This document shows, one piece after another, positions 3,030 to 37,816 of a stretch of 37,816 nt of DNA; position 1 is the stretch's first letter, and the number at the start of each line of letters is the position of its first letter. The DNA comes from Proteromonas lacertae (taxonomy: Eukaryota). The position numbers and the translations under genes are program-made. The stretch covers positions 1 to 37,816 of the forward strand of contig NGBS01001218.1 in the NCBI GenBank assembly GCA_002245135.1. The letters are read 5' to 3'. The notes under the pieces were generated by a model. It did not search any database. It was not told where the DNA came from and saw nothing but the letters and a program-made list of their open reading frames with translations.

Positions 3030-3308
3030 ATGGAAGCCATCGGTAACAACTTACTCCAGACCGTAGATTGCCCAAGTGATAACAACTACCCGAAGTTACC
3101 ATCAGAGAATGAAAGGCTAGTGTTAGAGATGTGTATGAACAGGGCCAAGCAGATCTATCATTCCCGGGTCAGTGGAGAAGTACGTATACTCTACGATGAA
3201 GCAATCTCTCGTTATTGTAAAGACGAGATCATCAGTAGTAGCTTCGGAAAGGCTTACAACCTCTTGGACACTTGCGAGAAGATTAACATGGAGAGTTGTC
3301 TTGGATAA
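3030..3308 (+). CDS. Hypothetical element-encoded protein; degenerate coding-like sequence continues to ~3660
   Basis: ATG at 3030 within ORF 2973..3308; same GC-richer composition as polB; no recognisable motif. Confidence 0.4.
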   Translation: MEAIGNNLLQTVDCPSDNNYPKLPSENERLVLEMCMNRAKQIYHSRVSGEVRILYDEAISRYCKDEIISSSFGKAYNLLDTCEKINMESCLG

Positions 3309-4041
3309 GATGCATTGATAAGAGACTTAAGGCATCGACTCAATGACCTGGAGTTGGAGTATGCAATGGATCGATTACAGATAGATGAAGAAGTTGATCT
3401 CAAGTGTCACGAGGTACTCATCTTACCATAACAAGAACTTCCTTGGAGTTGCCATTGCATCGGTAACTAGCTTATAAACATAACCCAGGTACTTTTCTTA
3501 CTTATCGATGTAGTCTTTGGTGAGTTGCTTAGCAATCATTTATTTTATTCCTTGGAGATAACATTATAAGCAAAGAAGATGAAGACGATTTATATCCTTG
3601 GAAGGGAAGTCACTCAAGATGATGGTCAGAAGATCCTTTATATTGATGATCACAAATAAAAGTAATACTGAGTTTTCTTTTGACTGTAAGCATCTTCTAT
3701 TATCATTACCTGTAATAGCATATAATTTCCTCCAAAATCTATACCAATAGTATATGAATTATCAATATCCTACATAAAATATAAATAGCATTTAAAAGCT
3801 TGTTAGGTTTGAAATTAAATCCTATTTTTTTATTTATAGAAAACAATTATGGACTATTTATGAATTATAATATTTAATAACTCATTAATAGCTGTTGTCA
3901 TGCTATTAATACTATTATTTATACTCTTCAAAGTTTCTCTAGTTTCGTTGTCTTTTTCTATTTGTTCTTAAATTTTTTCCTCAATAATATCGATTTTTAT
4001 TCTCATATTATTTTTTTCTGTTTCATTTGCATATTAAAAAG

Positions 4042-6499: not shown

Positions 6500-6720
6500 C
6501 TAGAGTGTCCTATTTCTTTTAGTAGGAATTAACAGAGTTGACTTTTGCGAGACTTTCATCGATTGCATCGATGAAGGCCCCGTAAAGTCAACTCTGAATC
6601 TAGAAAGGGATAGACTCCTAGAAAACTCGTTAAAACTCGTTAAGCTGCCTACGGGATTCCTCCTACGGGATCTTCTTCCCTATGAGATGATGAATCCCGT
6701 TTCAAACTAAAGGTGTGGAC
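6500..6720. repeat. Imperfect palindrome plus adjacent sequence; diverged inverted copy of the 21.9-22.2 kb terminus
   Basis: CAGAGTTGACTTT..CATCGATTGCATCGATG..AAAGTCAACTCTG (6533-6596), followed by AATCTAGAAAGGGATAGACTCCTAGAAAACTCGTTA and CCTACGGGATTCCTCC, all matching the reverse complement of ~21965-22123. Confidence 0.9.
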
Positions 6721-16240: not shown

Positions 16241-16565
16241 ATTTTTGCATTTTCTAGAATATTCTAATATAATTTTATAGAATTTTCTTTCTATTTTTTT
16301 AAATCTAATTTACATATATTAATAAACAAACACCATTTCAATTAATGATATTAATTTAATTAATTATTTATTATATTTTAATTTTAATTATCAATCTTCT
16401 TCATCCACATCTACTACGTCAAGTTTGTTTTGTTTTAAAAGCATAATTAGCTGCTTTTTTTCATATTCTTCTTTTTCTCTTTCTTCTTTTCTTCTTTTAA
16501 CTTCTTCTTCATTATTTACTTTAGTAAAGAATCTGATTTTTTTGTTTTATTCTCTTCTTCACTTT

Positions 16566-17203
16566 TGTTGTGCGCCGTTTGTCATAGTTGGCCATTTGTC
16601 TATCAGACACTTTTAAAACTAATTAAATGTATATTCTTACTTGTCTTGATGAAAAATTGTTACTTTTATACTTACTTTGTTATATAACCTACCTCTGCAG
16701 AATACTTTTTTGTTAATATAAATAGTTTTAATATTTGCGCCGTTTGTTTTCTAGAAATTTTTAAAGCAAACTAAATGTATATTTAGTTAATATAGACTAA
16801 AATATATTAGATGAAATGATTAGAATATAATAATTATTAAATCTTTCTATATAAAAAAAGAAATGTAAAAAATAGGCTTGAGTGAGGCTTGATTCTATAT
16901 TTTCTTTTATTATTTTAAATGCTTTATGATCAACATTAAGTTGTTCTAAACATTTCAGCTAATATATTTTAGTCTATATTAACTAAATATGTATTTAGTT
17001 TGATTCATAAATTTCTAGAAAACAAACGGCGCAAATATTAAAACTATTTATATTAACAAAAAAGTATTCTGCAGAGGTAGGTCATATAACAAAGTAAGTA
17101 TAAAAGTAACAATTTTTCATCAAGACAAGTAAGAATATACATTTAGTTAGTTTTAAAAGTGTCTGATAGACAAATGGCCAACTATGACAAACGGCGCACA
17201 ACA
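16566..17203. mobile_element. Foldback/MITE element with ~250-bp TIRs and TGT..ACA termini
   Basis: TGTTGTGCGCCGTTTGTCATAGTTGGCC.. (16566 to ~16820) is the near-perfect reverse complement of ~16950-17203; spacer of ~130 bp; no TSD evident. Confidence 0.88.
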
Positions 17204-17649
17204 CATATGATATATTTCCTATTGAATAAAAAACATAGTTGTTTAAAACAAAGTATTTGTTAAGTTGATTGAAATGAATCATTCTTAATGTATACCATGT
17301 AGTTATATTAATTATTATAAATTTATATAGTATATGAATTTAGATTATTAAAATATACACTAATACCCTGAATTATATTAAAATATTTATGTAATATAAG
17401 ATTTGAATTCGATAACATTCCAAGAATATATTCATAAATCCTGCAAAAAATAATATAATAAGAAAATGAAACGTTATTTGATAAGTTAGCTGAAAATATA
17501 ACTATACTCGCTATGCAAGTAATATATAGTATATTCCTGTAATATAAAAAACAAGATAGGAGAATTGGATATATTACATATATTTGCTGCTGAAGAAATA
17601 TATACCAAAAATGTAAAACATACGATGGATTAAATTTTATAACTTTGCT

Positions 17650-17889
17650 AATATAGACTAAAATACATTAGCTGAAATGATTAGAATATAATAATGTTGA
17701 TCATAAGACATTTAAAATGAAAAAAGAAAATATAGAATCAAGCCTCACTCAAGCCTATTTTTTACATATCTTTTTTTATATAGAAAGATTTAATAATTCT
17801 TACATTCTAATCATTTCAGCTAATGTATTTATATTAACAAAAAAGTGTCTGGTAGACAAATGGCCAACTATGACAAACGACGCACTACA
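17650..17889. repeat. Internally deleted copy of the same MITE family
   Basis: Contains the inverted spacer (TAGAATCAAGCCTCACTCAAGCCTA) and the right end GACAAATGGCCAACTATGACAAACGACGCACTACA. Confidence 0.85.
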
Positions 17890-17899
17890 AGCTGGAAGC

Positions 17900-19600
17900 T
17901 TTTAAGGAATGTCATCAGTTCTCTTTTCGTTGCGTTGGTTATTCTAATCCAGTAGGTTTATCCTGATATGTAGTTCCACATTGTTAATAAGGTCTCATTC
18001 ATCGTTTATACTACATCCTTAATAGTCAACAACCTCACTGATAAAGCTGTTTACTTGATTCACAACCAGGTTGTTGAGGTTGTTGACTTTGCCTTGGACG
18101 TCTATCACTCTTGTCTGGCAGTCTCCTATCTTTCAATGTACTTCATTGACCTTGGTTAATTGAGCTGGTGAATAGAAGCTATTGACATTCCCGGTATTGA
18201 ATCCATCGATCTTGGTTCTGATAGCAGCTGCATTGTTGATAGCTGTATCGATCAGTCCTTTACGGGTATTGTTAAAGAAGCCATCCAAGTTCCTTCGGAG
18301 GTTGTCTTCTTCAGTCCTTCTAGCCACGCCGCAGGTTGCATTCACATCATTGATACTTAGAGAATGCACCTTGATCTTGATTGCATCGGTGTTGGCTAAG
18401 TCAGTGAGCTTCGTAAGGCTCTTATCATCCACCGTAGTGATGTACTTGATCATATCGTAGACGTTAACATCCCCGATGTTGAGACTCTCGCATAATGAAT
18501 TCAACAAGGTATTTAGACTATCCAATTTCTCATCCTCTGATCCCTTCAATTGATCGATTGAAGTGTTAGTGGATTCAAGGATATTGCTAACATCCTCCAT
18601 GCTCTTATACAACTCTGGTAATTGCTTCTCCGTGTACTGCTTAAGTTCATTGCTGCAAGTAGCGATATTGCTCAAGGATGTGATAGTCGTATCTCCGAAG
18701 TCTTCAGGGATCTTGTTGTTAAGCAAAGTATATAGATACATCTCTTATATCATAACCTGCCCTGGCCTTCAACAACTTTACCTACCTCCCGAGAAGTACC
18801 TTGCTTACTCTATCCACACGATGAACTTCAACTCCTTACGATTGCTAGCTGATGGATGTAGATGACTTTATCGGCGTTATGATGATTCTATTCCGATAAG
18901 ACTTATACGATGGTCAGAAGCCTCCTTTGAAGTTCACCTACTCTCCTTAGACTTCCAAGGATCTACTAATCGTCTCTCTATTCCAGATGCTCCTTTACCT
19001 TCATGGACTTCTCGGACGTGACAGACATTACCTATGATATGCTTCGTCTTCACTCTCGGTTCTAGCAGTCTACGATCACTGCTCTGGTAAGTACCTTAAT
19101 CATCTCTTGGCATCTCTTGAAGAGCTACTTGTGATCCTTACCGATACCTATCTCTTGAGCTGATGGTAACCCTTTCAAGTGACAACTCCTTCTAGTTCTT
19201 GTTCATCGTAGTTGTTGATCCTCGGTAATGTCCTAGCCTTCAATCAGATCACTACTAGTCTCAGTAATGTTGTTGTTGAAGTCAGTGGCTTTATCTATCT
19301 ATTGAGAAGCACCTTACGATCGATAGCTAATAGACTCTTGGACATCTATGCCGGTGTTGTTACTTGAGGAGTATACGATATCTCGGGTCTACTGACTTAC
19401 TTACTTACTTACTTGTGATGATTCCTAGCATCACAAGTAAGGACTACTCAGGTAAAGGATTATCGATCACACTTCCTATAGTCTGTATTGCAACTCTTTA
19501 TGTACCTACAACTACTTCACGATCTTCAGAGTCATTGATCCAAGGTTGCTATCTCGGGGTTGTTGATGTCCTTGCTATTATTGTCATCTCCGAGACTCCT
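17900..19600 (-). pseudogene. Heavily decayed large virus-like gene(s), possibly fibre/coiled-coil; longest open piece is 18133..18741
   Basis: GC-richer composition like polB; 202-aa helical heptad-like fragment; many stops, frameshifts and an (ACTT)n expansion. Confidence 0.45.
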
Positions 19601-19708
19601 TTAGTTTATTGAATTGATTACTTACCATGTCCTTGGGTTGATCATCTCCGTAAGGCTCCTTGAATTGATTATTTCTATTGTCCTCGACTATCCCAAGGTA
19701 ACATTTTG

Positions 19709-20171
19709 CTAAGTACCGACAGAGTTGTTAGAGTTGAAGATGCGTCTATTGCTGAGGTTATTGATGATTACTTTGCTGAGCGAGGAGTAGTAGTAAGTTC
19801 TATCTCTCGGGAGTTCATTGAGTTGTACTATCTGAAGCGTCTTGAGGGTACGTCTTCTCCTTGATAATAACCTATTCTGTTCTCGGCAGTCCCGACATGA
19901 CGATGAGTAATAACCTTCCTTAGGCATTTGAAATTCCTCCAAGGGCTTATCATGCTTACAAGTACGGCATACTACTTCCTTTTACTGTAGCTTCTCCATT
20001 CACTTTAAGTTGTTTCCATTGAACGGACTGCTTCCTATAATATCGCTCCATTGCCTGGTTGTTCTTGGCCCGGCATGATGGACATTGCTTATAACATCCT
20101 TTACCTCTATCCTTTGGGGTTGGGATCATAGGCTTCTTATACTTACTACAAATGGCTTCGGTATCATCCAT
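19709..20171 (-). pseudogene. Tandem zinc-ribbon protein with one frameshift
   Basis: Joining the frames at ~19980 gives CSKY..CPSCR then CRTCKHDKPLEEF..SSSCRDCR (CxxC..K...F..CxxC), a type common in DNA-virus proteins. Confidence 0.65.
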
Positions 20172-20229
20172 TGAATAACTACTTCCTTGTCGGCGTTGAA
20201 GCTTATCCAACTTCCCTGTGTTAGTCGAT

Positions 20230-21680
20230 CAGAGCTATCTTGGTTGCTCCCGTCCTTGTCATCATGGTGATCTCCTCGGTGAGCTCCTGGACAATGTAAT
20301 TAAACTTTACCTAGATGAGTTATAAAGACAATGAAGCATACCTAAGCAATGATCCCGTGGATGTTCCTTGGCTTTGTAATGAAGTCTCTTGATAGAAGTT
20401 CCATGGGAGGTTCCTTCTTGAGTTACAACTCAAGGAGGAACATCCCTTCCTTGCTAGGATAGATGATAGTTGAATGTTACCTAGTTGATTAACAAGGACG
20501 ATAAGACTTACCTTTATAAGGCTTCCGAGATTGATAACAATGATCTTCAAGGACCCTTGAGAAATTGAAGCCTACTGAAGTGATAACTAAGTTGTTGATT
20601 GTTTAAAGAGGTTCTGATAATGGTCCTTTAACTGAATGAAGATCTCCTGGTCTTGTTGTTGATCAAAGTGTAGTACCTCCCCTGATACAATCACCATTCA
20701 TGACTACGTCCGAGAGAACTCCTCCTTACGGCTATGCCTTCAGGAGGACTTCTCCCGTCCTTGTCATCATGGTGATCTCCTCGGTGAGCTCCTGGACAAT
20801 GTAATTAAACTTTACCTAGATGAGTTATAAAGACAATGAAGCATACCTTCAGAAGCATCCTGAGATTGCTCTTATCTATTCTCAAGTATCCTTGTAAGTA
20901 TTAATGATAAACTGCTAAGCTTAAATCATTTTCATTAGTTTACCTAGTTGAATTATAAAGCCATTGTAACTTACCTCTAGGAAGCTCCCGAGAATGCTTA
21001 CGATGATCTTCAAGGCCTTGAGAAAATCCAGTACTAACCAGAACTTCCAGTTGTAAAGTCACTGATTAATAGAAGTACCATTAAGGCACCTTCCCAGATA
21101 CGTCCAGCCGTGCATGACTACGTCAGGAATCTCCCATGTTGGGAGATTCCTTCCTTGCCAACACGGCTGTTCTTCTCGGGAAGGTCGTGGATGAACTTAT
21201 CTAGGAGAGTTATAAGGATGATAAACTTACCCTTTAGAAACAAACTGAGATTGCTCTTATTGATTCTCAAGTATCCTTGTAAGTATTAATGATAAACTGC
21301 TAAGCTTAAATCATTTTCATTAGTTTACCTAGTTGAATTATAAAGCCATTGTAACTTACCTCTAGGAAGCTCCCGAGAATGCTTACGATGATCTTCAAGG
21401 CCTTGAGAAAATCCAGTACTAACCAGAACCTCCAGTTGTAAAGTCACTGATTAATAGAAGTACCATTAAGGCACCTTCCCAGATGCGTCCAGCCGTGCAT
21501 GACTACGTCAGGAATCTCCCATGTTGGGAGATTCCTTCCTTGCCAACACGGCTGTTCTTCTCGGGAAGGTCTTGGATGAACTTACCTAGGAGAGTTATAA
21601 GGATGATAAAACATACCTTCAGAAGCCTTCCGAGATTGCTAATCATTATCTTCAAGGGCCTTGAGAAATCCACAACTAGC
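20230..21680. repeat. Modular subterminal repeat array: 7 copies of a TTA(C/T)CTAG-initiated unit, plus a 385-bp tandem duplication
   Basis: Unit starts at 20307, 20477, 20812, 20940, 21197, 21325, 21582; ~20860-21244 is repeated at ~21245-21629; a ~95-bp near-exact repeat at ~20248 and ~20753. Confidence 0.9.
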
Positions 21681-21990
21681 TAGAACCTCCCGTAGTTACC
21701 ATTTGGTAACTTGTTACCAATTGTAAACTCCCGGTTCCACGATTGGTTTCCACGGTTCAATTAAAAGCCCTTACAAGATCACCAGCGTAGCAAGGAGAGT
21801 CAAGAGCGTGATTAGATTCATCACCTCGAGGTAACCAACACTTCTAGATAGCTTCCAGGAGTACCCGTAGGAGATCGTCTCATAGATATGTATAGGTAGG
21901 TATAGAAATAGCTTAGAGGAGTTCCCGTAGGGAAATAGACCCCGTTGAGAAGTAGACCCTGTTGGGAGGAATCCCGTAGGAACCTTACGT

Positions 21991-22190
21991 AAACGGGACT
22001 ATGGTACAATGTGCCAGAGTTCTAACGAGTGTTCTAGGAGTCCGTCCCCTTCTAGATTCAGAGTTGACCTTTACGGGAGCTTCATCGATGCAATCGATGC
22101 AGCTCCCTTAAAAGTCAACTCTGAATCTAGAAGGGGACGGACCCCTAGAACACTCGTTAGAACTCTGTGAAAGTGTCCCAGGGTCCCATT
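21991..22190. repeat. ~200-bp imperfect palindrome (hairpin-terminus-like) at the boundary of GC-richer and AT-rich DNA
   Basis: Core 22015-22167: CAGAGTTCTAACGAGTGTTCTAGGAGTCCGTCCCCTTCTAGATTCAGAGTTGAC pairs with GTCAACTCTGAATCTAGAAGGGGACGGACCCCTAGAACACTCGTTAGAACTCTG; centre CATCGATGCAATCGATG. Confidence 0.95.
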
Positions 22191-22387
22191 TATATACTAT
22201 ATAATAATATAATATAATATATATATATATAGAATTTACATTTTAGAAATTAGAATAATAATTATAATACTAATTGAATATACATTTTTTTTTGAGTTTT
22301 TCTTGAAGATCAGTTGATATAGGAATGACTTCCACTGCCGATGAATTAGTCAATCTTATTTCGTTATCTTTATTACTATGTTAAATA

Positions 22388-23687: not shown

Positions 23688-23842
23688 AAAACTTATAAAT
23701 ATTTTGTTCTTTTATTTATTATACTTCAATATTATATTAATCTTATTTTCTAATAATATTATGTTCCTTTTGTAAATTTTGAATAATTAATAAAAAAAGG
23801 ATGATATATATATATATATATATATAAAGAATTACAAACTTA

Positions 23843-24680
23843 TTATTTTTTCCAAATACTTTTTAATTTATCAGCAGCACGACCTAGAAATCCAAATGGA
23901 TTATGTCTCGATTCATAACACTCATTTTCACTTTTCGCAAATTCTTTCAACTATTCTCTTTGTTTATCACTTATCTTACTATATCAATATAATGATAATA
24001 ATAATAATATATACGTTGGTATTCTTACAGTATAATGCAATATTTGATAGCCTTTACTAAATCCATTTGATTTTACAACAGCTTTATTTCTTAATATCAA
24101 TCTATCACCATTATCTATACCAGGTGGGATTTTAACTTCTACTACTTTTGTTTTTCTTTCCTATATATAAATGATAATAATAATTATATATATATATATA
24201 CTATTCCATTACCATGACAATGACTACATTTCTCTTGTTTTGTACCTGGTGCTTATTATAATAAATATAATAAATATATTATATCCACTACCACTGCATT
24301 TACTACATTGAACCATTCTTGACAATTTTACATCTTTATTACATCCTTTTATTGATTCTAAAAGTGTTAAATTTAAATTATAATGTAAATCATTTCCTCT
24401 TTCAGGAATATCTGTATTTTGATCCATTTCGAATATGTCTTCAAAATTAATACTACCTCCTCCATTGCTAGAATAACTGGCAAATTCACGGAATATATCT
24501 TCAGCAGACATTCCTCCATTGAAACCACCAAAACCACCTTATCCTCCCATCATGTTGGGATCTACACCTGCAAAACCGAATTGATCGTATTTCTTATGTT
24601 TTGCATCTGTTACTTCTACAAATTTCTTCTGTGCTTCTTTATCGCCTTTATTTCTATCTGGGTGATATTTTTTGTTTTTA
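23843..24680 (-). pseudogene. dnaJ: Type I DnaJ/Hsp40 pseudogene with short spliceosomal introns
   Basis: [17 protein letters not shown] region, EDIF, CSKCSGSG, CSHCHGNG, VKIPPGIDNG; GT-AG introns 23979-24014 (36 nt) and 24161-24201 (41 nt); stops at 24539-24541 and 23951-23953; internal deletions. Confidence 0.9.
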
Positions 24681-24937
24681 CATAATTCATTTTCCATAGA
24701 CACAATATAAAATACAAAACATAATAATAATTATAACATGTCATTAACTATTTAAATACTAGTAAAGTATGAATTATCCCATCTTGTTGAATCAATAGCT
24801 AATGATTTTGTTCTTTCCTATCTATTTCATTATTACAAAAACTAATTATCTTCATTAATTAAAGAAGAGGTAGATCTAGCTCTCTTTCTAAACATTCCTG
24901 ATTTTAATAAGTTGAATATCAACATCAATATTACTAT

Positions 24938-25770: not shown

Positions 25771-28173
25771 CAGGGTTGTATTTATCGGTTACCGACGGAA
25801 ATAGGTCAAAACCTATAGGTTTTGTCTTGACATTCAGTCGGTCAAGCCTTACAAGCCGTATATTATAAAATCTATTTTAATTCATTATATACTAATTTTC
25901 CTTTTATAAAAACTATCTTATAATATATTTTAATACTTGATTCATATATTTTCAATTCAATTAAATAATTTTTAACTTTTTATAAAGAATTACAATTTAA
26001 TACTCAACACTAATTAGGTATTTTATATAATTATGTTCTTATTTATTTCTACTAATCATCAGTTTCATTTGTAATCTATCACATGATAAATTTGATTTGG
26101 ATAAGTTACTTATTTGTCCAGCCTCGGAAAATATTCTTTCTGGCTCTGAAGATGTTGCTAGACTGTTTAAACTGTTATTGGCAAGTATGTATACCCTAGG
26201 AAACTTGGACTTTAATGATAGCCAGATATTTCCAATGGTTTCAGAGGTGCTGTAATGAATATCATATTGCAAATATTCTTGTACTTCATTTGGCATAATT
26301 AATCTCTTTATATTTACTACTTTTTCAAGATATTTATCTAATGTAGTTTCTTCTATTGAATATGTTTCTTCGATTTCAGTAATTATATAAATCAATGAAT
26401 TAATTAATATACTTTTAGATTTTTCAAATTCTGAATCGCTAAACCCTAGAGTACTATGAAGAATGAATGATTTTACTCTAGGGTCTAACATGCAGCACAA
26501 CAGAGTCAAATCACTATTATTACATATATTATTTAGTCTTTTTATCATATTAATTTTGATACTCTCAGCATATTCCTGTATCTTTGTTGGATAACCTGTT
26601 TTGAATTCAAATAAAGTCTGTTTATAATGTAAAACAGCCATTCCCATAGTCATGTCTCTATCTTCCAATATCTTAGTAAGTTTGTATAATGGTTCGAGTA
26701 TATCACATAGTTTATCTAGAATAACATACGCTATATTGATAGGGGAAGGGATAAATTTTAGCAACTCATCTTCTTTTGGTTTTATGGCATTAACTATACC
26801 TATAAGTTTTTCTTGGTTATACTGTTTAAGATTGTTTTTGTATTCATTTGTTTTTTCTTCATAATATTGATGCAATATTTCTTTACTTTCATAAAATTTC
26901 TTTAACATAATATATAAACTATTCCACCGAGTTGTCGTTAAAGTAGGTATACATAAATTGAGCTTATTTTTGTTTACGACGGTTCTTAGTTGTTTACCTA
27001 GATCTACAAATACTTTTACATTAATATCTATAACTCCTCCTTTAACCATAGCCCCAGTAATAGCAAGCTGAAGGCTATGGTTCATACATCTTACATTTGT
27101 TACACATGCATCTCTTATACCTTTCACCATATTCTTTCCATTGTCTGAAGTAACTGAAGTTATTTCAAATCCATACATTTCTTTTATGAAATATATTGTG
27201 TATGTAATTGTGTCTGCCTTTTCATTAACAACTTCTACAACACCAAGTGTTATTGTAACTAATTCAAACAAATCGTTGAAATAACATCCACTAATAGCTA
27301 CTAGTTCACTGGAATGCTCCGATTTCCACCCATCTATAGCAAGTGCGACTTCTTTACCATTTAAATCTTTCTTTAATTTATCCAATAAAAAATATAAAAA
27401 TAATATACAACAATTTCTATGTTTCTTTTAATTAAAAAGTCATTATATACTACTCTTCTTGATAGAACACAGTAGTGCTTATATGATCGTAAGTGATGAA
27501 ATCAAATAAGCTTTGTTCTATCTCATCATTGTTTATCTTTACATCTTCATCTACACAATTATGTGAACTAATTTGGTGAAGTTTGACAGCCTTTCCATTT
27601 TTCACGTTACAAGCGTTTCGAACACCACAAAATATGCAAATGCATTTATCAAGGCTTTTTATCTTTAACATATTATACCAACAGTTTTTGTAAAAGTTAA
27701 AATTAAGATGTTTAAGCATATTTGCCTCTTTTAAGGCAATAACTTCATGAGCCGCTCCAATTGGTAAAACTATACTCCTAGAATATATAATGATAAATTA
27801 TATTAGATAAATTTATGATAATTTTAAGAAATGATTAATGTCAAGCTAAAAGTTTGCCATTTTTTCTTTCAAATTTTTATAATCATTCTATACTTTATAT
27901 TACATATATAACACAATAGAATAACTCATTGGTAAGGTTAGATTCAATTATGAAGAAAGAAAAAAGCGCATCGACCGACGGTTAATTCGGTATTTTATAG
28001 AATGATATATAGAGCTTGAATTCAATATGTACAGTTAGATAATATTATTAATATCACATGTTTAGGAGGAGGTCAGCTAATAGTTACTACAGCCTGGTGT
28101 CGGTCAACATTTGTTTATTGACCTACGACCGATCGGTTTTCTCCTTCGGTCATGACCGATTTATACAACCCTG
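25771..28173 (-). mobile_element. Second hAT transposon, defective, no TSD
   Basis: TIRs CAGGGTTGTATTTATCGGT (25771-25789) and reverse complement CAGGGTTGTATAAATCGGT (28155-28173), 17/19; flanks CTAAAAAT and ATTATGAG differ; subterminal ACCGAC/GTCGGT motifs. Confidence 0.93.
26039..27788 (-). pseudogene. hAT transposase, broken between 27385 and 27450; start aligns to an ATA codon
   Basis: CIFC..H...H BED-like part; IDGW, TSDNGKN, RCMNHSLQL, TRWNS, SSEPERIFS; homologous along its length to 4417..6135. Confidence 0.92.
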
Positions 28174-28375: not shown

Positions 28376-28643
28376 AGGGGGCCAGAGCACAGTGTGCTCT
28401 AGCCCCCTATGGTTTTTTGATTCAAAAAAATGGCCCCATATTGTTTTTTCACCATTAGAAACGTTTTTAATGCATAATAAATACATCAATCGATTTCTCT
28501 ATTTATGCTGGGCTCATATATGCCCTTAGTTTGACTTTCTGATCATAATCGAAATTTAATTTTCTTAAAAAAATTCAAAAAACAATGATAGATAGGATGG
28601 CTACCATACTGTGTGATATGACAACATATGGTGACCATCCTAT
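28376..28643. repeat. Non-coding cluster of inverted repeats
   Basis: AGGGGGCCAGAGCACA-G-TGTGCTCTAGCCCCCT (28376-28408); TTTTTTGATTCAAAAAA; ATAGGATGG..CCATA..TATGG..CCATCCTAT (28592-28643). Confidence 0.75.
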
Positions 28644-28955
28644 GTAATAAAAAAAAATGGAGTTCAAGTCAAATCTCGAAACGCATCTATTTTTCTAAGT
28701 GTTATAGTTAGAGCTAGGATTAGTTTGAATTCATAATAAATATATCAATTGATTTGTTTTCTTTTTCTCTATCTTTCTATGTATTTATTTTTTATGTTTG
28801 ACTATAATTGAAATATAATTTAACAAAAATAATTTTTGGCGTATAATTAGCTACGCATATATACATACACTTATAATATCCCCAAATAAACACTATTTTA
28901 ATTATAAATAATATTTTAATTTTTTAATGAAATTGAAATAGAATTACTGACTTAA

Positions 28956-29366
28956 TTAGCAGTCAAATATATCTATTGGTATGGCATCATCATTGTCATC
29001 ATCAAATGCTTTTCTTCTTTTCTTTGTAGGTTCATTTGTTTGAATGATTTCATTGTCTTTCTTTTCTTCTTCTTCTTTTTCTTCTTGAAGGTGTTCTTGT
29101 TCTCTATCTTCATTATTTTTAATAGTTTCCTTAATAGTTTCGATTAATGATTTCATTTTCACAATAACATCTTCTTCAACTGTTTGTTTTTCAGCTGGCT
29201 CTTCAACTGGTTCTACAACTGGTTTATCATTTGTTAATTCAACATCATCTTCTATTTCACTCTCTGTTTCAATCTCTTTTACTAAAGCTGCTACAACATT
29301 TCCCCATTCGTCATCATATTCCATATTATAACCTGTTATCATATCTCCATCCCCTAATTCTGTCAT
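28956..29366 (-). CDS. Acidic hypothetical viral protein with an NLS-like PTKKRRK
   Basis: 136-aa ORF, E/D-rich. Confidence 0.6.
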   Translation of the reverse strand: MTELGDGDMITGYNMEYDDEWGNVVAALVKEIETESEIEDDVELTNDKPVVEPVEEPAEKQTVEEDVIVKMKSLIETIKETIKNNEDREQEHLQEEKEEEEKKDNEIIQTNEPTKKRRKAFDDDNDDAIPIDIFDC

Positions 29367-29449
29367 TGTATCAGATGTTAATGTTTTTAATGAATCATAT
29401 ATGTAGTCAATTTTACGATCTATCTATATATTGATAAAACTTTTATAAA

Positions 29450-29782
29450 TTATACAATTGACTTAGGTTTTGAATTTTTATACTCCAAACAATAAATTAA
29501 TTCATTTTTAAAGTCTTTATAATAATCCACTCTAAACCTTGCATCTCTAATCCAGATGGATTTAAATCTATCCACCAGACTTTGTATATTAGGTATTAAT
29601 CTAGTGCCTTTAAAACTATATAACATAATATGATAAATATACTGGTATCTACTTAAATATCTGAAGTTTTTAGCTACATCTTGTAAATTAACCAACAAAA
29701 TGTCATATTCAGCTTCATCATGTACTACTTTTACTTTTACTCTGTAAACTACTTCTTGTTTTAAAATAATTTTGTTATTCAT
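29450..29782 (-). CDS. Hypothetical viral protein
   Basis: 110-aa ATG-started ORF with globular composition. Confidence 0.55.
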   Translation of the reverse strand: MNNKIILKQEVVYRVKVKVVHDEAEYDILLVNLQDVAKNFRYLSRYQYIYHIMLYSFKGTRLIPNIQSLVDRFKSIWIRDARFRVDYYKDFKNELIYCLEYKNSKPKSIV

Positions 29783-30189
29783 GATGATATTTCAAAAATA
29801 ATTAATAATATAACTGCCAAACTCAAACCAGTATTCAAACTTGTATATTTTTTAATATTTATATACAGGGTTAGCACACAATCTAACTATAATTTATATA
29901 TACTTACTAGGGTATATACCCATCTCAATTATATCAATATCTTATTTCAGGCAATAATTTAAATCATCTTTGATTATGAAACATATATGAAATCTAACTA
30001 TATCAATCGATTGCTTATGATATGCCATATAATAAGAAACACATCAGATTATTCATTATGTCAATGGATCGTGAGATATTATTTTTTTTAACAAACCTCA
30101 AACATTTGTATTACTAAACAAACAATAACTTTATTGATTAGACCCATAAAAATTTAATAATATATATAATAGCAAAAAATACAAAGAAT

Positions 30190-30690
30190 ATGCCTGACCA
30201 TTTAACATATAATATGCTTAGACAACCTAACGGTGAATATGCTTTTTACATTCATAGATATAGAGACAATAGAGCACATAGATGGGTTATTCAATTTCCA
30301 ATTAAAACAATGAAAATATTAAAAAGAAATAAAGTAAAGGTGTTTATATGTGGTTCACTCAGAACTAATAGAAATGATCCAGAAGTACTAGGTGATTATA
30401 GATATCATGGTGATCAATTAATGATAAACCTCAAAACCTATGGGTATGACAGAAGAGCTTCAATATTAGTAATGAATAGAAAATTAAGAAATGGAGAACA
30501 TGAGTATGCAGATGGTGATTGTATTCCTCAAAAATTTAAAAAATATGTTTTTCATCATATGAGTTATCAATGGAATGGAGGGAATTTTTATCACATACAT
30601 CCAGTTGATAGAAATGTTGCTGATGGAATTAGTAGTAGTAGTAGTAGTGATAGTAGTAGTAGTAGTAGTAGTAGTAGCGACTCTGATTAA
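30190..30690 (+). CDS. Hypothetical basic/His-rich viral protein with a poly-Ser tail
   Basis: 166-aa ORF; tail encoded by (AGT)n; TGTTTGTT at 30720-30727 downstream. Confidence 0.7.
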   Translation: MPDHLTYNMLRQPNGEYAFYIHRYRDNRAHRWVIQFPIKTMKILKRNKVKVFICGSLRTNRNDPEVLGDYRYHGDQLMINLKTYGYDRRASILVMNRKLRNGEHEYADGDCIPQKFKKYVFHHMSYQWNGGNFYHIHPVDRNVADGISSSSSSDSSSSSSSSSDSD

Positions 30691-30794
30691 ATACTTAAAA
30701 ATTCTATTATTATTATATATGTTTGTTTTTGTTTGATAAACATACTATTAATAGTTACTATATTTTAAATAATATCAATTATAAAAATCACAAC

Positions 30795-31166
30795 ATGTCT
30801 TATTATGGAGGATGGCCAAAAGGGTTTAAAATTAGTAAAGACTGGAATACATATATTCCTAAATCAGTTAATAGGAGTAAATGGAGAAAGAGCTATGATT
30901 TGTATAGAGACAAAGTAAAGAATGCACTACAAAACAAAACAAAAGTTAAATTACAATATAGACAATTAATGAAAATGTATGAACGATTATTAGCTGCTAA
31001 TCCACCTAAACAAAGAGCAAGACCAAAAGGAAGTAAAGATAGAGCAAAACGTAAACCAAGACGAGCCGGGCCACGAGCCGCGCCAAAGAATGATCCACAT
31101 CGTATAGTTGTGCATAATGGCAGGCATTATCAGTATGGTATTCCAGTTCCTAATATGGATAATTAA
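30795..31166 (+). CDS. Small basic protein, candidate virion core/DNA-condensing protein
   Basis: ATG at 30795; K/R-rich, RARPKGSKDRAKRKPRR is AT-hook-like; TGTTTGTT at 31215-31222 downstream. Confidence 0.6.
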   Translation: MSYYGGWPKGFKISKDWNTYIPKSVNRSKWRKSYDLYRDKVKNALQNKTKVKLQYRQLMKMYERLLAANPPKQRARPKGSKDRAKRKPRRAGPRAAPKNDPHRIVVHNGRHYQYGIPVPNMDN

Positions 31167-31280
31167 AGTAATTCTTTATATATATATATATTTTTTTTTA
31201 TGTAATGTTATGTGTGTTTGTTTTTTTGGTGTTTGGTACTGCTATATCCGGCGGCCACTTGACAACTTGAATTGTAATAT

Positions 31281-31351
31281 AAGTTACAACTGGCGCCAGT
31301 TGTAACTTGAATTGTGATGTATCCTACAACTTGGGCCAGTTGTAAGATACA
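31281..31351. promoter_or_regulatory. Tandem related palindromes between convergent genes
   Basis: Perfect 28-bp AAGTTACAACTGGCGCCAGTTGTAACTT (31281-31308); imperfect 34-bp TGTATCCTACAACTTGGGCCAGTTGTAAGATACA (31318-31351); function inferred only. Confidence 0.6.
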
Positions 31352-31402
31352 AGTTTAACCAAAAGAAACATAATATAATATAATATAAAAAATAAAAAAA
31401 AA

Positions 31403-31639
31403 TTAAATAGTCATTTTCCTTTGTTTAGTGATTTCAATAAGAGACTGAATATCCTTAAGTGTCTTATCATGTTCTAATCCTTTATTCATCATGGCATCTA
31501 TATTATTTCTAAGTTCTTCTATGTCTGTATTGTTTGGAATACAATTGTGTGCCTTTAAGTATTTGAAAAGAGCCAAAGCTATCATATACAATACAAATAC
31601 GAGAACTGAAAGCAAAACAGTTATTACATCAAAGTCCAT
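31403..31639 (-). CDS. Small single-pass membrane protein with coiled coil
   Basis: VITVLLSVLVFVLYMIALALF followed by a heptad-like region. Confidence 0.65.
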   Translation of the reverse strand: MDFDVITVLLSVLVFVLYMIALALFKYLKAHNCIPNNTDIEELRNNIDAMMNKGLEHDKTLKDIQSLIEITKQRKMTI

Positions 31640-31707
31640 GTGTGTTTATGAGAATCTTATATAAGAAAAACAAAATTAATCAAAGTAATGTATTTATTAT
31701 CAATAAA

Positions 31708-32313
31708 CTAACTTACAAGACATTGGTTATTATTAATATATTCATCCTTAATGGATCTTGGTGATATTGGAGATAAGTCATAATCTGTGAGATTGACATT
31801 GTCATTGTCATTTTCAAGCTTGACTTGTATTTCTTCTATTTCTTTATTACTACTATCATTAGGAGGAGGAGGAGGAGGTAATATATTAGCTTCATGATTC
31901 ATCATAATAATACTTTCTAATAATTGATGAGTTTTTTCAAAAGATGGGTTTCTTTTCTCCTTAATCTTGTTAACACACTCAAGGAACATATTAGGTGTAA
32001 TGCGCACAGTCTCATCTACATCAGAAATACCTAATCTTTGAATTAATTTCTCTTTACTCTCATCCCACCAACATCCATTTTTGAATCTATATTCCAAGTC
32101 TAATCTATACTGTTCATCGACGTATTTGAGTATATATCTGATCTCACTATAAGTTAATTCCTTTTTCTCGCCACATATCAAATTCCATAATTTATATTTG
32201 GTTGGTGCCCTCATTTTGCCATCCTTTCTAAAGCAATTAATGAGTATTTGTTTATCAGAGTTCCAAAAGTTATATGGCACTGTTCTAAATTTGTGTTCCT
32301 GATCGTTATTCAT
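31708..32313 (-). CDS. Hypothetical viral protein
   Basis: 201-aa ORF with a poly-Pro linker and acidic tail. Confidence 0.65.
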   Translation of the reverse strand: MNNDQEHKFRTVPYNFWNSDKQILINCFRKDGKMRAPTKYKLWNLICGEKKELTYSEIRYILKYVDEQYRLDLEYRFKNGCWWDESKEKLIQRLGISDVDETVRITPNMFLECVNKIKEKRNPSFEKTHQLLESIIMMNHEANILPPPPPPNDSSNKEIEEIQVKLENDNDNVNLTDYDLSPISPRSIKDEYINNNQCLVS

Positions 32314-32398
32314 TTTAAAAAAATAAAAGTGTAATTAATACTAATAATGACAATATTGACATTATTAACGAATTTATTTTCAAAATAGATTTTATCTT

Positions 32399-33358
32399 AT
32401 GTTAGTTTCGAATCATCGTGTATACTACTTAAATTCTGATATGATTGTATTATCTGATTCCATGGGTGGAGGAAACAAGTATAAGAAGACATTAAAATTG
32501 CAATCATTCGATGATGATTATACTCATGTCAGCTTATTACATGCTGTTATACCCAATTCATTCCCAACTATACAGGAAGAAACAAATGATGAGTTTTCAT
32601 TAGTATTCACATTGGGATGGAGACATGATGTTCAAGTAGATACACCAAAGTATCCAAACATCATAAAACACCTCAAAATACCAGAAGGATTCTATGATGA
32701 AACTCAGATATTAAGTATGATCAATAATTTAGTCAAAAATATGACATATGATGTTTTTGGAATAAATGATGCTGCATATAATACTGAAGGTTCACATGTG
32801 TCTATTATACAAGGAAAAGGAGATTTATTTCGTATAGACAATTTCGATGATAATCAAACATATCATATTGAGGTAGCTAATGATATGAATATTATATACT
32901 ATCAAAAAGACCCAGTATATTGGATAGAAAAATTAGAGATCATCACCAAAGATCTTAGTTACAAAATATTAGGTATACCTAAAAACAATTACTGGTGTTG
33001 TTTTAAAGAATATATTCCATCTGAAGAACCAGAGAATCAACAAGAAATTATGGTTAAGCCATTCCCATTTACTCAATTACCATTTCGTCCTTCTTTGATA
33101 TGGGTTAATTCTATATCTATTAGATTAGACATAGTGAATATTATGCAGGATTCAAATGTATTAGAAAATATACCCGTTTCAAATCCTGAGTTACCATTTA
33201 TTACATATCAGAATAATGACATATTGAATACATCGAAGAGATTTAATAATACCTATAGCAATGGTATGATCACTATTCAGATTACTCAACAAAATGGTTA
33301 TGAACTTAATCTTGATAATATTGAGTTTAATTTAGATATTGTTGTATTTAAAGTCTAA
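32399..33358 (+). CDS. Minor capsid (penton) protein, single jelly-roll type
   Basis: VSLLHAVIPNSFPTI, IPEGFYD..ILSMIN, VLENIPV, ITIQITQQNGYELNLDNIEFNLDIVVF match the PLV/Polinton penton pattern; adjacent to MCP. Confidence 0.85.
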   Translation: MLVSNHRVYYLNSDMIVLSDSMGGGNKYKKTLKLQSFDDDYTHVSLLHAVIPNSFPTIQEETNDEFSLVFTLGWRHDVQVDTPKYPNIIKHLKIPEGFYDETQILSMINNLVKNMTYDVFGINDAAYNTEGSHVSIIQGKGDLFRIDNFDDNQTYHIEVANDMNIIYYQKDPVYWIEKLEIITKDLSYKILGIPKNNYWCCFKEYIPSEEPENQQEIMVKPFPFTQLPFRPSLIWVNSISIRLDIVNIMQDSNVLENIPVSNPELPFITYQNNDILNTSKRFNNTYSNGMITIQITQQNGYELNLDNIEFNLDIVVFKV

Positions 33359-33389
33359 TTTTTTTATTTCTTTATTCTTTTGTTTTCTA

Positions 33390-34849
33390 ATGGCTTTATC
33401 TATTCCAAAAGAACAGAAACATGGTGTAGATGTCCCTGTGATGCTACCCTTCTATAATTATGTGAGATTGTCTCCGATGGGATCAACATCAGAATACAAG
33501 TTGGATACAAATACTTATTCAGAAGAGATTAGATGGGAGATAAGTGGAGATAATATTATCAATTTAGCTAAGTCATATATCCAATTCGATATCGAAGTAA
33601 AATTAAATCCTTATGATGATGGTACCTATGCAACCGATGGTAGTACTAGTAATTTAGTCGGTAAAGGTTTATATCCGAGTATGATAAAAGGAATTAAAGA
33701 AGGGTTTGGCTTGGCCTCTTTTAGAATTTGTAATCAGACTGGAACAGATCTGGTCAAGCTTGATGATTCATATGAACCATATCGTGTATTTATGGACGAA
33801 TTAGTTAGAAAGAGATGCGATATATTCTATCAAGACAATTACTATGATGGAATACAATTAGATTGGGATGATGATAATCATAATTATAAAGTTCAAGATA
33901 TCAATAAGTGGAAAGTAGAACCTAGTACACAATATGTTGAATTAAAAGCTAGTACTAGTGCATCTGCAGCAACAGCATATGCAGTTCAGTATAAAGATTC
34001 AGTTATATTACATTTCAAATTACAATTAGGTAAATTTTATAATACATTTGCTGCATTAAAGAATGATGTATTCTTTGGAGAGAGAATGTATATATGCATT
34101 CGTTTTCAAACCACAAGTAATTATGGTTTATTAAAAGCATATACACCAGATGAATATGCAAGATTGAAAAATGATAAAACAAAAGATAATGTAAACTATA
34201 CAGTGTCACATGCAGATGTTGATATTAATGAAGCAATATTCAAGAATTTCAAATTCTATGCTTATATCAACAAGGATACTCAATGCAACAATAATACCAA
34301 ACAATATTGTTTATCAAAACCTATTCAATTCAATGATTTCAGATGTCATCAAATTGTTGTACCATCAGGTGGATCTGGCATATTCAATTATTCATTCACA
34401 TTGAATAGTTCTAATGGACCATTTGTTCGTTACATAATCTATAGGCCATGGATAGAATCATTAAAAAGATATGCCACATGTACCTGAAAATGCACAATTC
34501 AGATGGATGATCAATGACTTTGTCTATCAGCCAGATTATACACTTATGCAATATTATGATAGCTTCATGACTGTCCGTGAATATTTCCAAGACTCATGGT
34601 ATGATATATTCAGAAAAGATGAAAAATTCAATGACAAGTTCTTTGAGATATTGAATTTTGGCTCTAAGGATTTGGATAACATTAAGAACCAGGCAGGTAG
34701 ACCTTTGGCTACTGATTTGAAAATAACCTTTGAATTTTCAACACCTGGTACAAATGACTTTACTAATAATGATATTACTCATCGTTTCTATATCATCACT
34801 GGACGTATGGTCACCTATTAATGGAAGTGGTATTGTAAGTGTAGTTTAA
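33390..34849 (+). pseudogene. Major capsid protein (double jelly-roll type), frameshifted at ~34480 and ~34818
   Basis: ATG at 33390; IRWEISGDNIINLAKSYIQFDIEV N-terminal strand pattern; beta-rich; reconstructed C-terminus INGSGIVSVV*; lies between penton and ATPase. Confidence 0.75.
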
Positions 34850-34910
34850 AAATAATCATAATATCGATAACGGCTATATTTCTTATAATTATGTTTTTGT
34901 TATTTTTGTT

Positions 34911-35660
34911 ATGAGTAAAGTTAATTTAGAAAAAATAAACAACATAGTCATAAATCCTGTTGAGACAGTAGTCAAAGGATGTGGAAAACGCTCCAAAGAT
35001 AGTGTCCTTGGATATGACTATTTCCAGGAGCCTTTCTGCAACATATTTATTTTAGCTAAGAAAAACAGTGGTAAGACTACACTTATATTTAATATGATCC
35101 AACACTTGCTGAAAAAAGGGATATGACCAAGTAGTGTATTTTTTCGTTGCAACTATATCCAAGGATATCATATATGAGAAAATCACTGATATGCTCAAGT
35201 ATAACCAAATTGAGTACCATTGCTATGATTCAGTAGTGAATGAAGATAGAGTGAATATATTAGATGCAGTATTAGATAATATCAAAGATATAGACAAAGA
35301 TAATTATGATTACCCAGAGAATATATTTATATTCGATGATATATCATTTGATTTAAGAAATAAATCCGTTTCTAAATTACTTAAGTCAAACCGTCATTAC
35401 AAGTCAAAAGTAATTATATCAAGTCAATATGTCACTGACATTACTCCATCAGTTCGTTTACAGCTTGATTACTGTTTGGTATTCAAAAACCTGAGTATGG
35501 CTAATTTAAGAAATTTGTATGCAAGTTTGGATATATGGATCGATTTCGATGTTTTCAAATCATATTATGATTATGCAACCAAACAGAGTAATCACTCATT
35601 TTTATATATCGATTTATATAATCATGAATTTAGAGTGAATTTTGATAGTAGAATTAGAGA
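34911..35660 (+). pseudogene. A32/FtsK-HerA family genome packaging ATPase, frameshifted at ~35115; 3' end uncertain
   Basis: Walker A AKKNSGKTT, Walker B IFIFDD, LLKSNRHYKSKVIISSQY, ITPSVR, HSFLYID. Confidence 0.92.
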
Positions 35661-35823
35661 TAATAGTAATAATAGCTATAATCACAATAATAAATATGAT
35701 CACCTCATTTCCTATAGCAGCGATGATGAGTCCACTGATTCATCAAGTTATCCAGCGATTCGGAATAATAATAATCCCCATATTGTCACTAATATAATTA
35801 TTTTGTTTATTTTGCTATATTTT

Positions 35824-36696
35824 ATGTTTGGCCGTCCTATTAAAAAACAAGCTGTATCAACAGATCTAACACCTGTCACGAGGGCACTGACATCGATTAC
35901 AAGCAATTTGGGAGAAAAAGTTGGAGATGCTAAATCGATTAGAGAAATGTTGGTCGATATCAAGAATAGTGGTACAGGAGGATCATCTGGATCAGGTGGT
36001 GGTATTGATAGTGCAACTAGTGAGAAAATTGATGGAATTGTGAATGTCATTGGAAAGACCAAATTAGAGAGCTGGGATAAGAGCATACATAATATGTTAT
36101 CTGTTTTGTATTCTACAATTTATGATGATGCTAATTCAATTGCTTATAATGTCAATAGTATAATGTCCTATATAGGATATCGAAGTGAATATCAAGATAG
36201 TTCATGGAAAATGGAGAATCGTATAAAATGGAGTTCTATGGGTGAAAATAACATGATATTAAAATCTGTAGATGGTCAATTAGAAATTGTTCAAGCAAGA
36301 CAAGTTTTACCAAACTGTTATTGCTTTGTAAGATATGCAGCTTTTCAAACATATTTGCAAATAGAAATACTAAATCCTGTTAGAATAATAACAAGCGAAC
36401 TAATAATTAATTCAATCTTAACTCCAGATGTAGAAAAATTTTTAAGCAAATATTTAAGTTTTACAAATAATGTACCAAGAATAGATATTTTTTTTGAGTC
36501 ATTAAGTGGACATCATCAAGTATGCTTTTTTGAAATTACTCGTGATATATGTAGTTTTAGTATGAAAAATCCTACTACAGAACATAATGTGGATAACTTT
36601 GAAGGTAATTGTATTCTAATCCCACAAAAAATAATATTTCCATATGGTAATAATGTTATATTAATAAAGATGATGCCATTTGATTTTAATATATGA
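35824..36696 (+). CDS. Putative fibre/receptor-binding protein, in frame with the ATPase ORF
   Basis: ATG at 35824 after a T-rich intergenic-like stretch; helical N-terminus, GTGGSSGSGGG linker, beta-rich AT-richer C-terminal domain. Confidence 0.5.
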   Translation: MFGRPIKKQAVSTDLTPVTRALTSITSNLGEKVGDAKSIREMLVDIKNSGTGGSSGSGGGIDSATSEKIDGIVNVIGKTKLESWDKSIHNMLSVLYSTIYDDANSIAYNVNSIMSYIGYRSEYQDSSWKMENRIKWSSMGENNMILKSVDGQLEIVQARQVLPNCYCFVRYAAFQTYLQIEILNPVRIITSELIINSILTPDVEKFLSKYLSFTNNVPRIDIFFESLSGHHQVCFFEITRDICSFSMKNPTTEHNVDNFEGNCILIPQKIIFPYGNNVILIKMMPFDFNI

Positions 36697-36703
36697 ATTA
36701 TAA

Positions 36704-37000
36704 TTAATTCTTCTTGTTTCTCTTGTATTGTTGGTTTTGATTATCACTCTCAGTTCTTCTTTTCATCGGAGCAGGTGTTGTTGGTACTGGAATAATATCA
36801 TAATCTGCAGGTTGTGTATACATATTCTCCAAATCTATATCATCTACATCCTGATTCTCAGCACACTGATCCTCATCATCCTTCTCCTTCTCAAGTTTTT
36901 GCTCAAATTTCTTGATACTACTATGCACTTCAAATTTTGGGATAATAGTGTATTTTTCTTTATCCTTCTTATCTAATACAGTTATCTGTCTAATTCTCAA
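36704..37000 (-). CDS. Hypothetical charged viral protein
   Basis: 98-aa ORF (TTG start) abutting the next ORF. Confidence 0.45.
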   Translation of the reverse strand: MRIRQITVLDKKDKEKYTIIPKFEVHSSIKKFEQKLEKEKDDEDQCAENQDVDDIDLENMYTQPADYDIIPVPTTPAPMKRRTESDNQNQQYKRNKKN

Positions 37001-37267
37001 TCACACTGGACACTCATAAAATAAATAACTTGGAGGATCTTTAATCTTGCTTAACCATGCCCAAAATCTGACAGTGTTATTATCGTTGTCTTCAGGAAAT
37101 ATCACTTGGAAGCCACATTTCTTATAGTCTTTGACCATATTTGAGTCATCTGTATACTTGATGGCATAATCCACAAACATTTTTTTCAAAGGCTCCTTTA
37201 CATCTTGATAATAATTTTTAATAGGTCTTCTGTTCTTAAATAAGAACCTTCCTGGAGTAAAACTCAT
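37001..37267 (-). CDS. Hypothetical viral protein
   Basis: 88-aa ATG-started ORF. Confidence 0.55.
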   Translation of the reverse strand: MSFTPGRFLFKNRRPIKNYYQDVKEPLKKMFVDYAIKYTDDSNMVKDYKKCGFQVIFPEDNDNNTVRFWAWLSKIKDPPSYLFYECPV

Positions 37268-37816
37268 GACATAGTACTTTGCATCTTCAATCTTTTTCTG
37301 TATTTGGTTCAGGCTTCATTACACCAATCCTTTTACAGTTAAATAAGTAACATCTCTATCATCTAATGTGATAAAATTAGATCCATTATTGATATTTGAA
37401 CTCATACCGCCAAAATGAATATTATATATCCGTTTCACAAAAAGATTTATGTGGTTTGAATATGTTTGATACATTTGGAGCGGTTATACAAATTACCGCG
37501 CATACCATGAACATGTGTAAATTGTATAGTTTGATTACACAAGCTTATTTGATAGATTCCATTTTCATCATTTCATTACACTCAAGTATGTCAGACAACC
37601 AAAAAGATACTTCAGAAAATATAAGGACTTAGATTATTGTGATTACATGCCATTCGAAGATGCTCGAAATAGATTCTGGGAGCGTATGGAGCAATTAGAC
37701 CCTAATGGGAGTGATGCTTTATCTAAAGAGTATAATCGATTTTTTAAAGAATTGGAAACAAGAAAGAGAAGAATAATGAGAAGTAATTTATAATAATTAT
37801 AATAATAGTAACCATT

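Follow-up and report, generated by a model that had tools for sequence, protein, structure and literature searches.

Which kind of element occupies positions 28956 to 37816 of contig NGBS01001218.1, and in what state is it preserved? The window, i.e., the whole analysed stretch of 37,816 nt, was described in an earlier note as holding a divergent endogenous Polinton-like virus with a near-complete virion module, possibly from an undescribed lineage. We consider it quite probable that this part contains the genes with which a Polinton-like DNA virus builds its virions; the virus is likely integrated in an AT-rich gut protist, likely an opalinate, and its capsid likely belongs to an unnamed cluster of capsids from Proteromonas lacertae. 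Rather than opening a new lineage, the virus probably adds a member to a little-studied, unnamed group. As such, one more endogenous Polinton-like virus is ordinary because these viruses are common in protists. The family to which this one likely belongs matters somewhat more.

The virion genes and their products

Three virion genes follow each other on the plus strand in the order penton, major capsid protein (MCP) and A32-type packaging ATPase, and a fourth frame of 290 aa (ORF290) follows in the same direction. Six-frame reading confirms the tandem which the earlier note had seen, and the module is, as described there, divergent and Polinton-like; its capsid is predicted to be of the double-jelly-roll (DJR) type.

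The MCP gene (33390-34849, plus strand, about 485 aa) lies in three frame pieces with breaks near 34479 and near 34817; according to the alignment with intact relatives the frame moves on by one at each break. The first piece has five relatives among 1599 candidates (46-61% identity, 469-484 aa), all intact and all from Logan. A profile search with the MCP through 1.84 billion representatives gave 28 matches at E<=0.001, 16 at 1e-10 and 9 at 1e-30; the table searched gives no sources, and three close matches which were looked up came from Logan. Read with X at the breaks, the window MCP is 64-66% identical to the P0001 and P0002 clusters. The fold was modelled on the intact relative P0001 with an alignment of 24 rows, and the model scored well (predicted local distance difference test, pLDDT, 83; predicted template modelling score 0.83). 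Nearly every Foldseek row shown for this model belongs to a DJR capsid or a scaffold homologue of one, at 7-12% identity and template modelling (TM) scores of 0.4-0.57. In BFVD an unnamed entry ranks best (E 4e-14, TM 0.57), followed by a MELD virus protein; the adintovirus capsid appears only at rank 16 with 9% identity. In the PDB the capsids of iridovirus, PBCV-1, Sputnik and mavirus were retrieved with E-values down to 2.5e-12. Pfam assigned no family to P0001, and no capsid family, virophage MCP and Capsid_NCLDV included, was found among the 24 aligned MCP rows. The window MCP is thus predicted to possess a DJR fold, via the model of a 65%-identical relative, and the refutation which the earlier note had named, an MCP without a double jelly roll, did not come about.

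The penton, or minor capsid protein (32399-33358, plus strand, 319 aa), is intact and was assigned from relatives and a structure model. Nine relatives were found among 432 candidates, at 37-69%. The top Foldseek rows in BFVD are proteins of Tetraselmis viridis virus S1 and minor capsid proteins of virophages and giant viruses (E 4e-6 to 3e-5). The best VIA match is a PBCV-1 capsid chain with a root-mean-square deviation of 4.1 over 120 aligned residues; Sputnik chain N (Z 6.0) and the mavirus penton (Z 5.8) follow. The model, of moderate quality, points to a single-jelly-roll penton.

The packaging ATPase of the A32/FtsK-HerA type (34911-35768, plus strand, about 285 aa) carries the other two frame breaks, near 35115 and near 35749, and its natural stop, TAA TAA TAA from 35766, is in another frame. 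Searched in three pieces, it matched 45 of 87 candidates at E<=1e-8, the best at 92%. Walker A (AKKNSGKT) and Walker B (FIFDD) are retained, the family profile matches the STIV B204 packaging ATPase (E 6e-6), and the relative P0057 passes the Pfam Pox_A32 cut-off. An A32-like packaging ATPase is present. The longest contigs of MCP relatives and of penton and ATPase relatives share equal sizes (5409, 7818, 3319, 4759), which is a hint at linkage only.

A frame of 527 codons joins the ATPase to ORF290, the gene which had been called fibre-like. It is best taken as a product of the breaks because the closest relatives are 282-288 aa long and end in the same acidic Ser/Asp tail as the window ATPase, while in the window this tail and the TAA stops lie in another frame. 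ORF290 is in frame with the middle ATPase piece only through the second ATPase break. A genuine fusion was rejected for these reasons; longer fused forms were not searched. ORF290 (35824-36696, plus strand) is read as a separate gene. It had no match in Pfam, PHROG, NCBIfam, PDB sequences or phage records, its best Atlas score (0.81) is at chance level, and a trimer prediction, folded without an alignment, scored 0.01. Since it matched nothing, the fibre label comes from position and is unsupported.

Relatives, sister group and the Proteromonas capsid cluster

Close relatives of the virion genes were found only as Logan-sourced or unlabelled proteins. Exact-word scans of contigs, which miss distant relatives, gave 134, 248 and 135 pattern matches for the MCP in IMG/VR, JGI and GTDB (viral, metagenome and genome contigs) and 42 for the ATPase in viral contigs; none was confirmed. 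With an ATPase profile 126 of 242 matches in JGI metagenomes were confirmed, and the locus statistics are based on 80 of these 126. In these 80 loci (best segment 28-51% identical) an MCP match occurs 38 times and the complete set of penton, MCP and ATPase 15 times, in 11 of the 15 with the order penton-MCP-ATPase on one strand.

The MCPs of these loci are homologous to the window family. A profile built from the 12 close MCPs alone recovers them (best E 1e-21), and hhalign of the two clades reports 99.9% and E 8e-33 at 15% identity. In the ATPase tree (53 rows) the window falls into a clade of 11 sequences on a long stem, in the MCP tree (39 rows, calculated without five near-duplicate loci and short fragments) into a clade of 12, again on a long stem. 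Support is high there, although midpoint rooting makes it uncertain to which branches the labels belong. The sister group consists of environmental Polinton-type elements which encode a protease, an rve integrase, and pPolB (protein-primed type B DNA polymerase) or a primase-helicase. A Pfam scan of 98 proteins from 13 long loci, three of which were covered in part, detected cysteine protease and a DUF5906 helicase domain in 5 loci each, rve in 4 and pPolB in 2. The sister elements (L002-L080) have homologous MCP, penton and ATPase in the order of the window; they differ from it by MCP identities of 10-19%, by ATPases which are 28-51% identical in the best segment, and by an open reading frame (ORF) of 117-163 aa between MCP and ATPase, which the window lacks. 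This ORF (L036:8034-8429, L039:9549-9935 and 9 more loci) is conserved and beta-rich, possibly a second small capsid protein. One sister-clade viral contig also carries an ATG8 ubiquitin-like gene (L056:10378-10755, E 1e-13). By gene content the sister elements resemble Gosseviruses or VC35, as far as these are characterised in the available part of Bellas and Sommaruga (2026); motif searches of published supplements returned no group label for them.

Could the locus instead be a fragment of a larger insertion, similar to Nucleocytoviricota or mriyaviruses, or a free viral contig which was wrongly connected with DNA of the host? In the Atlas the MCP is surrounded by clusters which mostly carry the label Nucleocytoviricota and in some cases Capsid_N, and the element is cut by the window end so that its full size is not visible. 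Yet there is no Capsid_NCLDV match, the contigs which carry sequence relatives reach up to 21 kb and have a Polinton-type content, and MCP, penton and ATPase are adjacent as in small elements. We regard such an origin as very improbable.

The capsid has apparently been counted before. Table S1 of Bellas et al. (2023, PMC10120064) lists 285 MCP hits for P. lacertae, whereas all 10 of 10 Blastocystis rows are without an MCP count. According to its Table S4 all 285 are in one 'new' cluster without a group name (number 25 by column count), outside the GKS1 columns; clusters unite MCPs of >=25% identity over >=30% of length. Table S3 presents one P. lacertae MCP of 450 aa, 400 residues of which are given, with a Foldseek hit to PBCV-1. 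A hand count over two C-terminal blocks finds agreement at about 61 of 130 positions between this sequence and the window MCP. Both belong to one length class, share NLxKSY, DxFFGE, FNYSFTxNSS, WMINDF and KFFExLNFGS, match the PBCV-1 capsid in Foldseek and come from a gut protist setting. By this count the window MCP likely is a member of the unnamed P. lacertae cluster. It is far from the one P. lacertae sequence given there, however, and forms its own subclade, 46-66% alike to Logan proteins.

The claim of an undescribed lineage survives in part. The MCP is apparently catalogued in the 285 hits of PMC10120064, and a 2026 preprint, in the part available, draws Proteromonas MCPs of Polinton-like viruses (PLVs) as a known set; the group is unnamed, and a genome-level description of the P. 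lacertae MCP family was not found in the literature searched, most subscription papers being outside it. In the tables cited the P. lacertae family amounts to a number of capsid hits from a single gut protist; it has neither a name nor a placement, and its MCPs come without gene maps. The window supplies the gene order and ties penton and ATPase families to this MCP family. The relatives which the searches retrieved are numerous, intact and diverse, and metagenomes of water and sediment contribute a sister group.

Frame breaks, element limits and host

Four frame breaks in two adjacent core genes, MCP and ATPase, require an explanation, and just one of them sits in a base run. Introns were set aside, as relatives align straight across the breaks. 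Programmed frameshifting was set aside as well; the relatives are single frames and the contexts of the breaks have no shared motif. Assembly error or very recent damage is favoured because nonsense codons are missing and conserved residues have not eroded: no stop occurs in 1085 codons over penton, MCP and ATPase, and the window departs from otherwise invariant columns at 0/112 (penton), 5/164 (MCP) and 2/94 (ATPase), i.e., at 7/370 and always mildly. The nearest intact relatives depart at 1/113, 3/162 and 3/95, likewise 7/370. Terminal branches are not clearly lengthened (ATPase 0.08 vs 0.05; MCP 0.19 vs 0.13-0.18 in intact relatives). Section 7 of PMC10120064 describes such breaks as frequent assembly artefacts. 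Neutral decay was simulated in 400 runs each at 1, 2, 5 and 10 substitutions per indel. Depending on the ratio assumed for the host, the outcome 'no stop, <=2 extra hits' appeared in 72%, 45% (179/400), 2.5% (10/400) and 0% (0/400), respectively. We lean, with modest conviction, to assembly errors as the cause of the four breaks; very recent real damage is a serious contender, slightly short of an even chance.

If the damage is real, the window holds a dead provirus, a young pseudogene copy in a region which collects broken mobile elements, and any particles would stem from other copies. This is a substantial possibility which falls somewhat below the probable. In its favour are the concentration of four breaks in two neighbouring core genes, three of these breaks outside base runs, further stops at 36.7-37.4 kb and the broken DnaJ and pPolB genes within the same window; at 1-2 substitutions per indel a clean protein pattern is the expected one. 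On the other hand, nonsense codons and excess changes at conserved columns are missing, and the terminal branches resemble those of intact relatives. A dead provirus differs from a Polinton-like virion module, as preferred here, solely in the state of the window copy.

The element lies between a hAT element with terminal repeats (25771-28173) on the left and, on the right, the window end, which falls inside it; 37816 is 23 bases past the last orphan frame. Position 28956 marks the end of an orphan ORF rather than an established boundary of the element. GC-richer palindromes at 28376-28408 and 28589-28646, which precede the first orphan frame, are a candidate for the element end. Between convergent genes a 40-bp direct repeat (31250-31345, no strand) includes two palindromes which contain GC. 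Rfam had no match in the window scan. Polinton-like viruses (Polisuviricotina) have genomes of 14-45 kb with terminal repeats; a partner for a terminal repeat was not found within the window. When 16 integrase, protease, polymerase and helicase queries from the sister clade were compared by tblastn with 28.2-37.8 kb, there were 0 matches, and Pfam found none there either. A 'near-complete' virion module is correct for MCP, penton and ATPase; a maturation protease was not found in 28.2-37.8 kb.

The remaining frames of the element have no family in the searches run, i.e., Pfam, PHROGs, NCBIfam, PDB sequences and phage records had no match for the orphan ORFs, as for the MCP, and the description of several orphan ORFs around the virion genes is accurate. 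Compared by hhalign with the small sister-clade ORF, the orphans gave <1%, no correspondence. Two orphans at 28956-29791 (minus strand; an acidic frame of 155 codons and one of 113 codons) are probably part of the element by position and GC content. They are followed by an ORF of 166 aa with a Ser/Asp tail (30190-30690, plus strand) and by a basic ORF of 123 aa (30795-31166, plus strand; isoelectric point 10.8, 26% K+R). The basic nature claimed for the latter is real, its core role an interpretation of composition; its charge makes it a candidate DNA-condensing core protein. The ORF of 78 aa (31403-31639, minus strand) has one strong N-terminal hydrophobic segment (KD19 2.87), which accounts for the small membrane protein of the earlier note; an internal membrane or an egress role finds no support beyond hydrophobicity. 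SLATT_5 matches it below significance (E 0.014, 14.9 bits, cut-off 60). Since viruses of this group commonly carry holin-like and SLATT membrane genes, as stated in the available part of a 2026 preprint, the gene is no sign of an internal membrane, and we regard it as a candidate egress or defence protein. The ORF of 201 aa (31708-32313, minus strand) diverges from the penton gene across an 85-bp spacer. Beyond ORF290 lie one broken or two to three short frames (36704-37405, minus strand), with an in-frame TGA at 37001-37003 and more stops near 37316 in six-frame translation, and an open frame of 87 codons (37530-37793, plus strand).

Of 11 viral stop codons (28956-36704) 6 are followed within 60 nt by the hexamer TTTGTT, which never occurs antisense; 0 of 9 host genes carry it. 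The motif was chosen after looking; the shuffle mean is 2.0, and 4 of 1000 shuffles are as high. It resembles a downstream element of human-type Blastocystis which is reported, in the literature available in part, to be absent in tortoise isolates and in P. lacertae.

The virion-module stretch has a GC content of 0.292, compared with 0.418 at 1-3700 (the pPolB element) and 0.213 in the host gene block (7-17 kb); third-position G+C amounts to 0.23, 0.55 and 0.16, respectively. The two viral regions thus differ in base composition, as the earlier note had seen. Nearby are hAT elements, genes for galactosyltransferases and a DnaJ gene whose AT-rich introns measure about 36-41 nt. According to the parts of the literature at hand tortoise Blastocystis have 21-23% GC and introns of >30 nt and P. 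lacertae 27% GC, compared with 21% for host-like DNA in the window. The host is likely an AT-rich gut protist of the opalinate Proteromonas/Blastocystis group, and the gut protist of the earlier note is plausible from GC, intron size and the known host of the capsid.

Several points weigh against the proposed integrated Polinton-like module. The DJR fold is read from P0001, not from the window's own pieces, and the penton model is of middling quality (pLDDT 63, TM about 0.3, Z 8.2). The trees contain no named reference viruses, and the comparison with the P. lacertae cluster was made by hand on 400 of 450 residues and is not a computed alignment. The host assignment uses GC, intron size and the capsid's known host, not homology. 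Within 28.2-37.8 kb neither integrase, replicase, protease, terminal repeat nor target-site duplication was found; therefore self-driven integration is only inferred. Lastly, genuine decay exists in the same window, i.e., in-frame TAA and TAG in DnaJ and a pPolB gene (270-2877) in five pieces.

Further features lie elsewhere in the window. The pPolB frame pieces begin with an endonuclease VII-like start, and their GC and codon use are unlike those of the virion module. A third island (17900-22200, 41.7% GC) contains repeats spaced by 128/257 nt and an orphan frame of 203 codons (18133-18744, minus strand) and ends in a near-perfect hairpin of 200 nt (21990-22192), partly repeated at 6533-6678; it may mark where an element of the 42% GC family ends. 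Two hAT transposase copies (25771-28173 and 4405-6138) are 41% alike; the right one has a split frame and the terminal repeats CAGGGTTGTAT but lacks an 8-bp target duplication. The DnaJ gene (23840-24895, minus strand), whose introns are short and whose J-domain has a gap, is pseudogene-like or error-rich. A MITE-like (miniature inverted-repeat transposable element) pair of 276-nt inverted repeats, 100 nt apart, is found at 16559-17210 and 17644-17890, with further partial copies. Between 6800 and 16200 extends an array of membrane-anchored glycosyltransferase and methyltransferase genes, three of them with Galactosyl_T.

Way of life and known systems

In Polinton-like viruses trimers of the MCP make up the faces of an icosahedral shell and pentamers of the penton its vertices. 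By analogy with this virus group the MCP of the window would build the faces and its penton the vertices, the ATPase would pump linear DNA into the shell, and the basic protein of 123 aa may condense this DNA. Going by the sister group, the unseen right part would carry an integrase (most likely rve), a replicase (pPolB or a primase-helicase) and perhaps a cysteine protease. As this part would hold integrase and replicase, the element may alternate between an integrated copy and particles.

Alternatively, the element may live like a virophage, i.e., as an integrated parasite which is switched on by a co-infecting large DNA virus and uses its factory. Several PLV isolates live in this manner according to the literature available in part, the Sputnik MCP is the best PDB match by query TM-score (0.55), as reported for Gosseviruses in the same literature, and no transcription genes were seen in the part covered. 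Yet Pfam found no virophage MCP family in the 24 aligned MCPs, the best E-values are those to iridovirus and PBCV-1 capsids, and according to an egovirus preprint, in the part available, there is no gene flux which links Blastocystis with the gut giant viruses treated there. The TTTGTT motif, selected after inspection, hints at host-type 3' processing. A dependence on giant viruses appears rather unlikely.

More far-reaching is the idea of an active lineage of class-level depth which derives from an unnamed aquatic Polinton-type group, is confined to gut opalinates (Proteromonas, Blastocystis), makes particles and moves between vertebrate-gut hosts, with genes that end in a Blastocystis-type downstream motif for 3' processing and with an intact, inducible window copy. 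Taken as a whole this is doubtful. If it were true, a cultivable DNA virus and gene vector for opalinates would be at hand, and any active form would permit virus-host tests in a very common group of gut eukaryotes. Should the host be Blastocystis, the host range would be widened, because none of the Blastocystis rows in the 2023 survey (PMC10120064, Table S1) had an MCP count.

How does the module compare with known systems? Besides the sources named, parts of PMC7805220, PMC12129017, 10.64898/2026.06.19.733378, 10.64898/2026.10.13.758929, 10.64898/2026.07.28.741278, 10.1101/2024.03.23.586382 and 10.1101/2022.05.25.493380 were drawn on. From Blastocystis data a small DNA virus, MELD virus 3996, is in print with pPolB and integrase and with virion proteins described as unrecognisable (Starrett et al. 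2021, PMC8502044, available in part); likened by description only, it could represent the family of the virion module, the 42% GC family of the window, or neither. Virophages (Virophaviricetes, including rumen virophages) share with the module a DJR MCP, a penton, a packaging ATPase and endogenous copies; they differ in that no profile match exists and structural alignments yield 8-10% identity, no closer than to other DJR capsids. The type MCP of GKS1 (Gossevirus), 576 aa in Table S2 of PMC10120064, has by eye no motif in common with the window MCP, and the cysteine protease of the Gossevirus core is absent from 28.2-37.8 kb, yet present in 5 of 13 sister loci. Maverick-Polintons (Polintoviricetes groups 1 and 2) have pPolB, rve integrase and protease together with a Maverick-type MCP; none of these three enzymes was found in 28.2-37.8 kb, the visible part of an incomplete element. 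As to Nucleocytoviricota and mriyaviruses, there was no Capsid_NCLDV match, and VLTF2/3 and HUH did not occur among the frames scanned of this incomplete element. The nearest known system is the unnamed capsid cluster of P. lacertae, to which the window adds a penton and a packaging ATPase.

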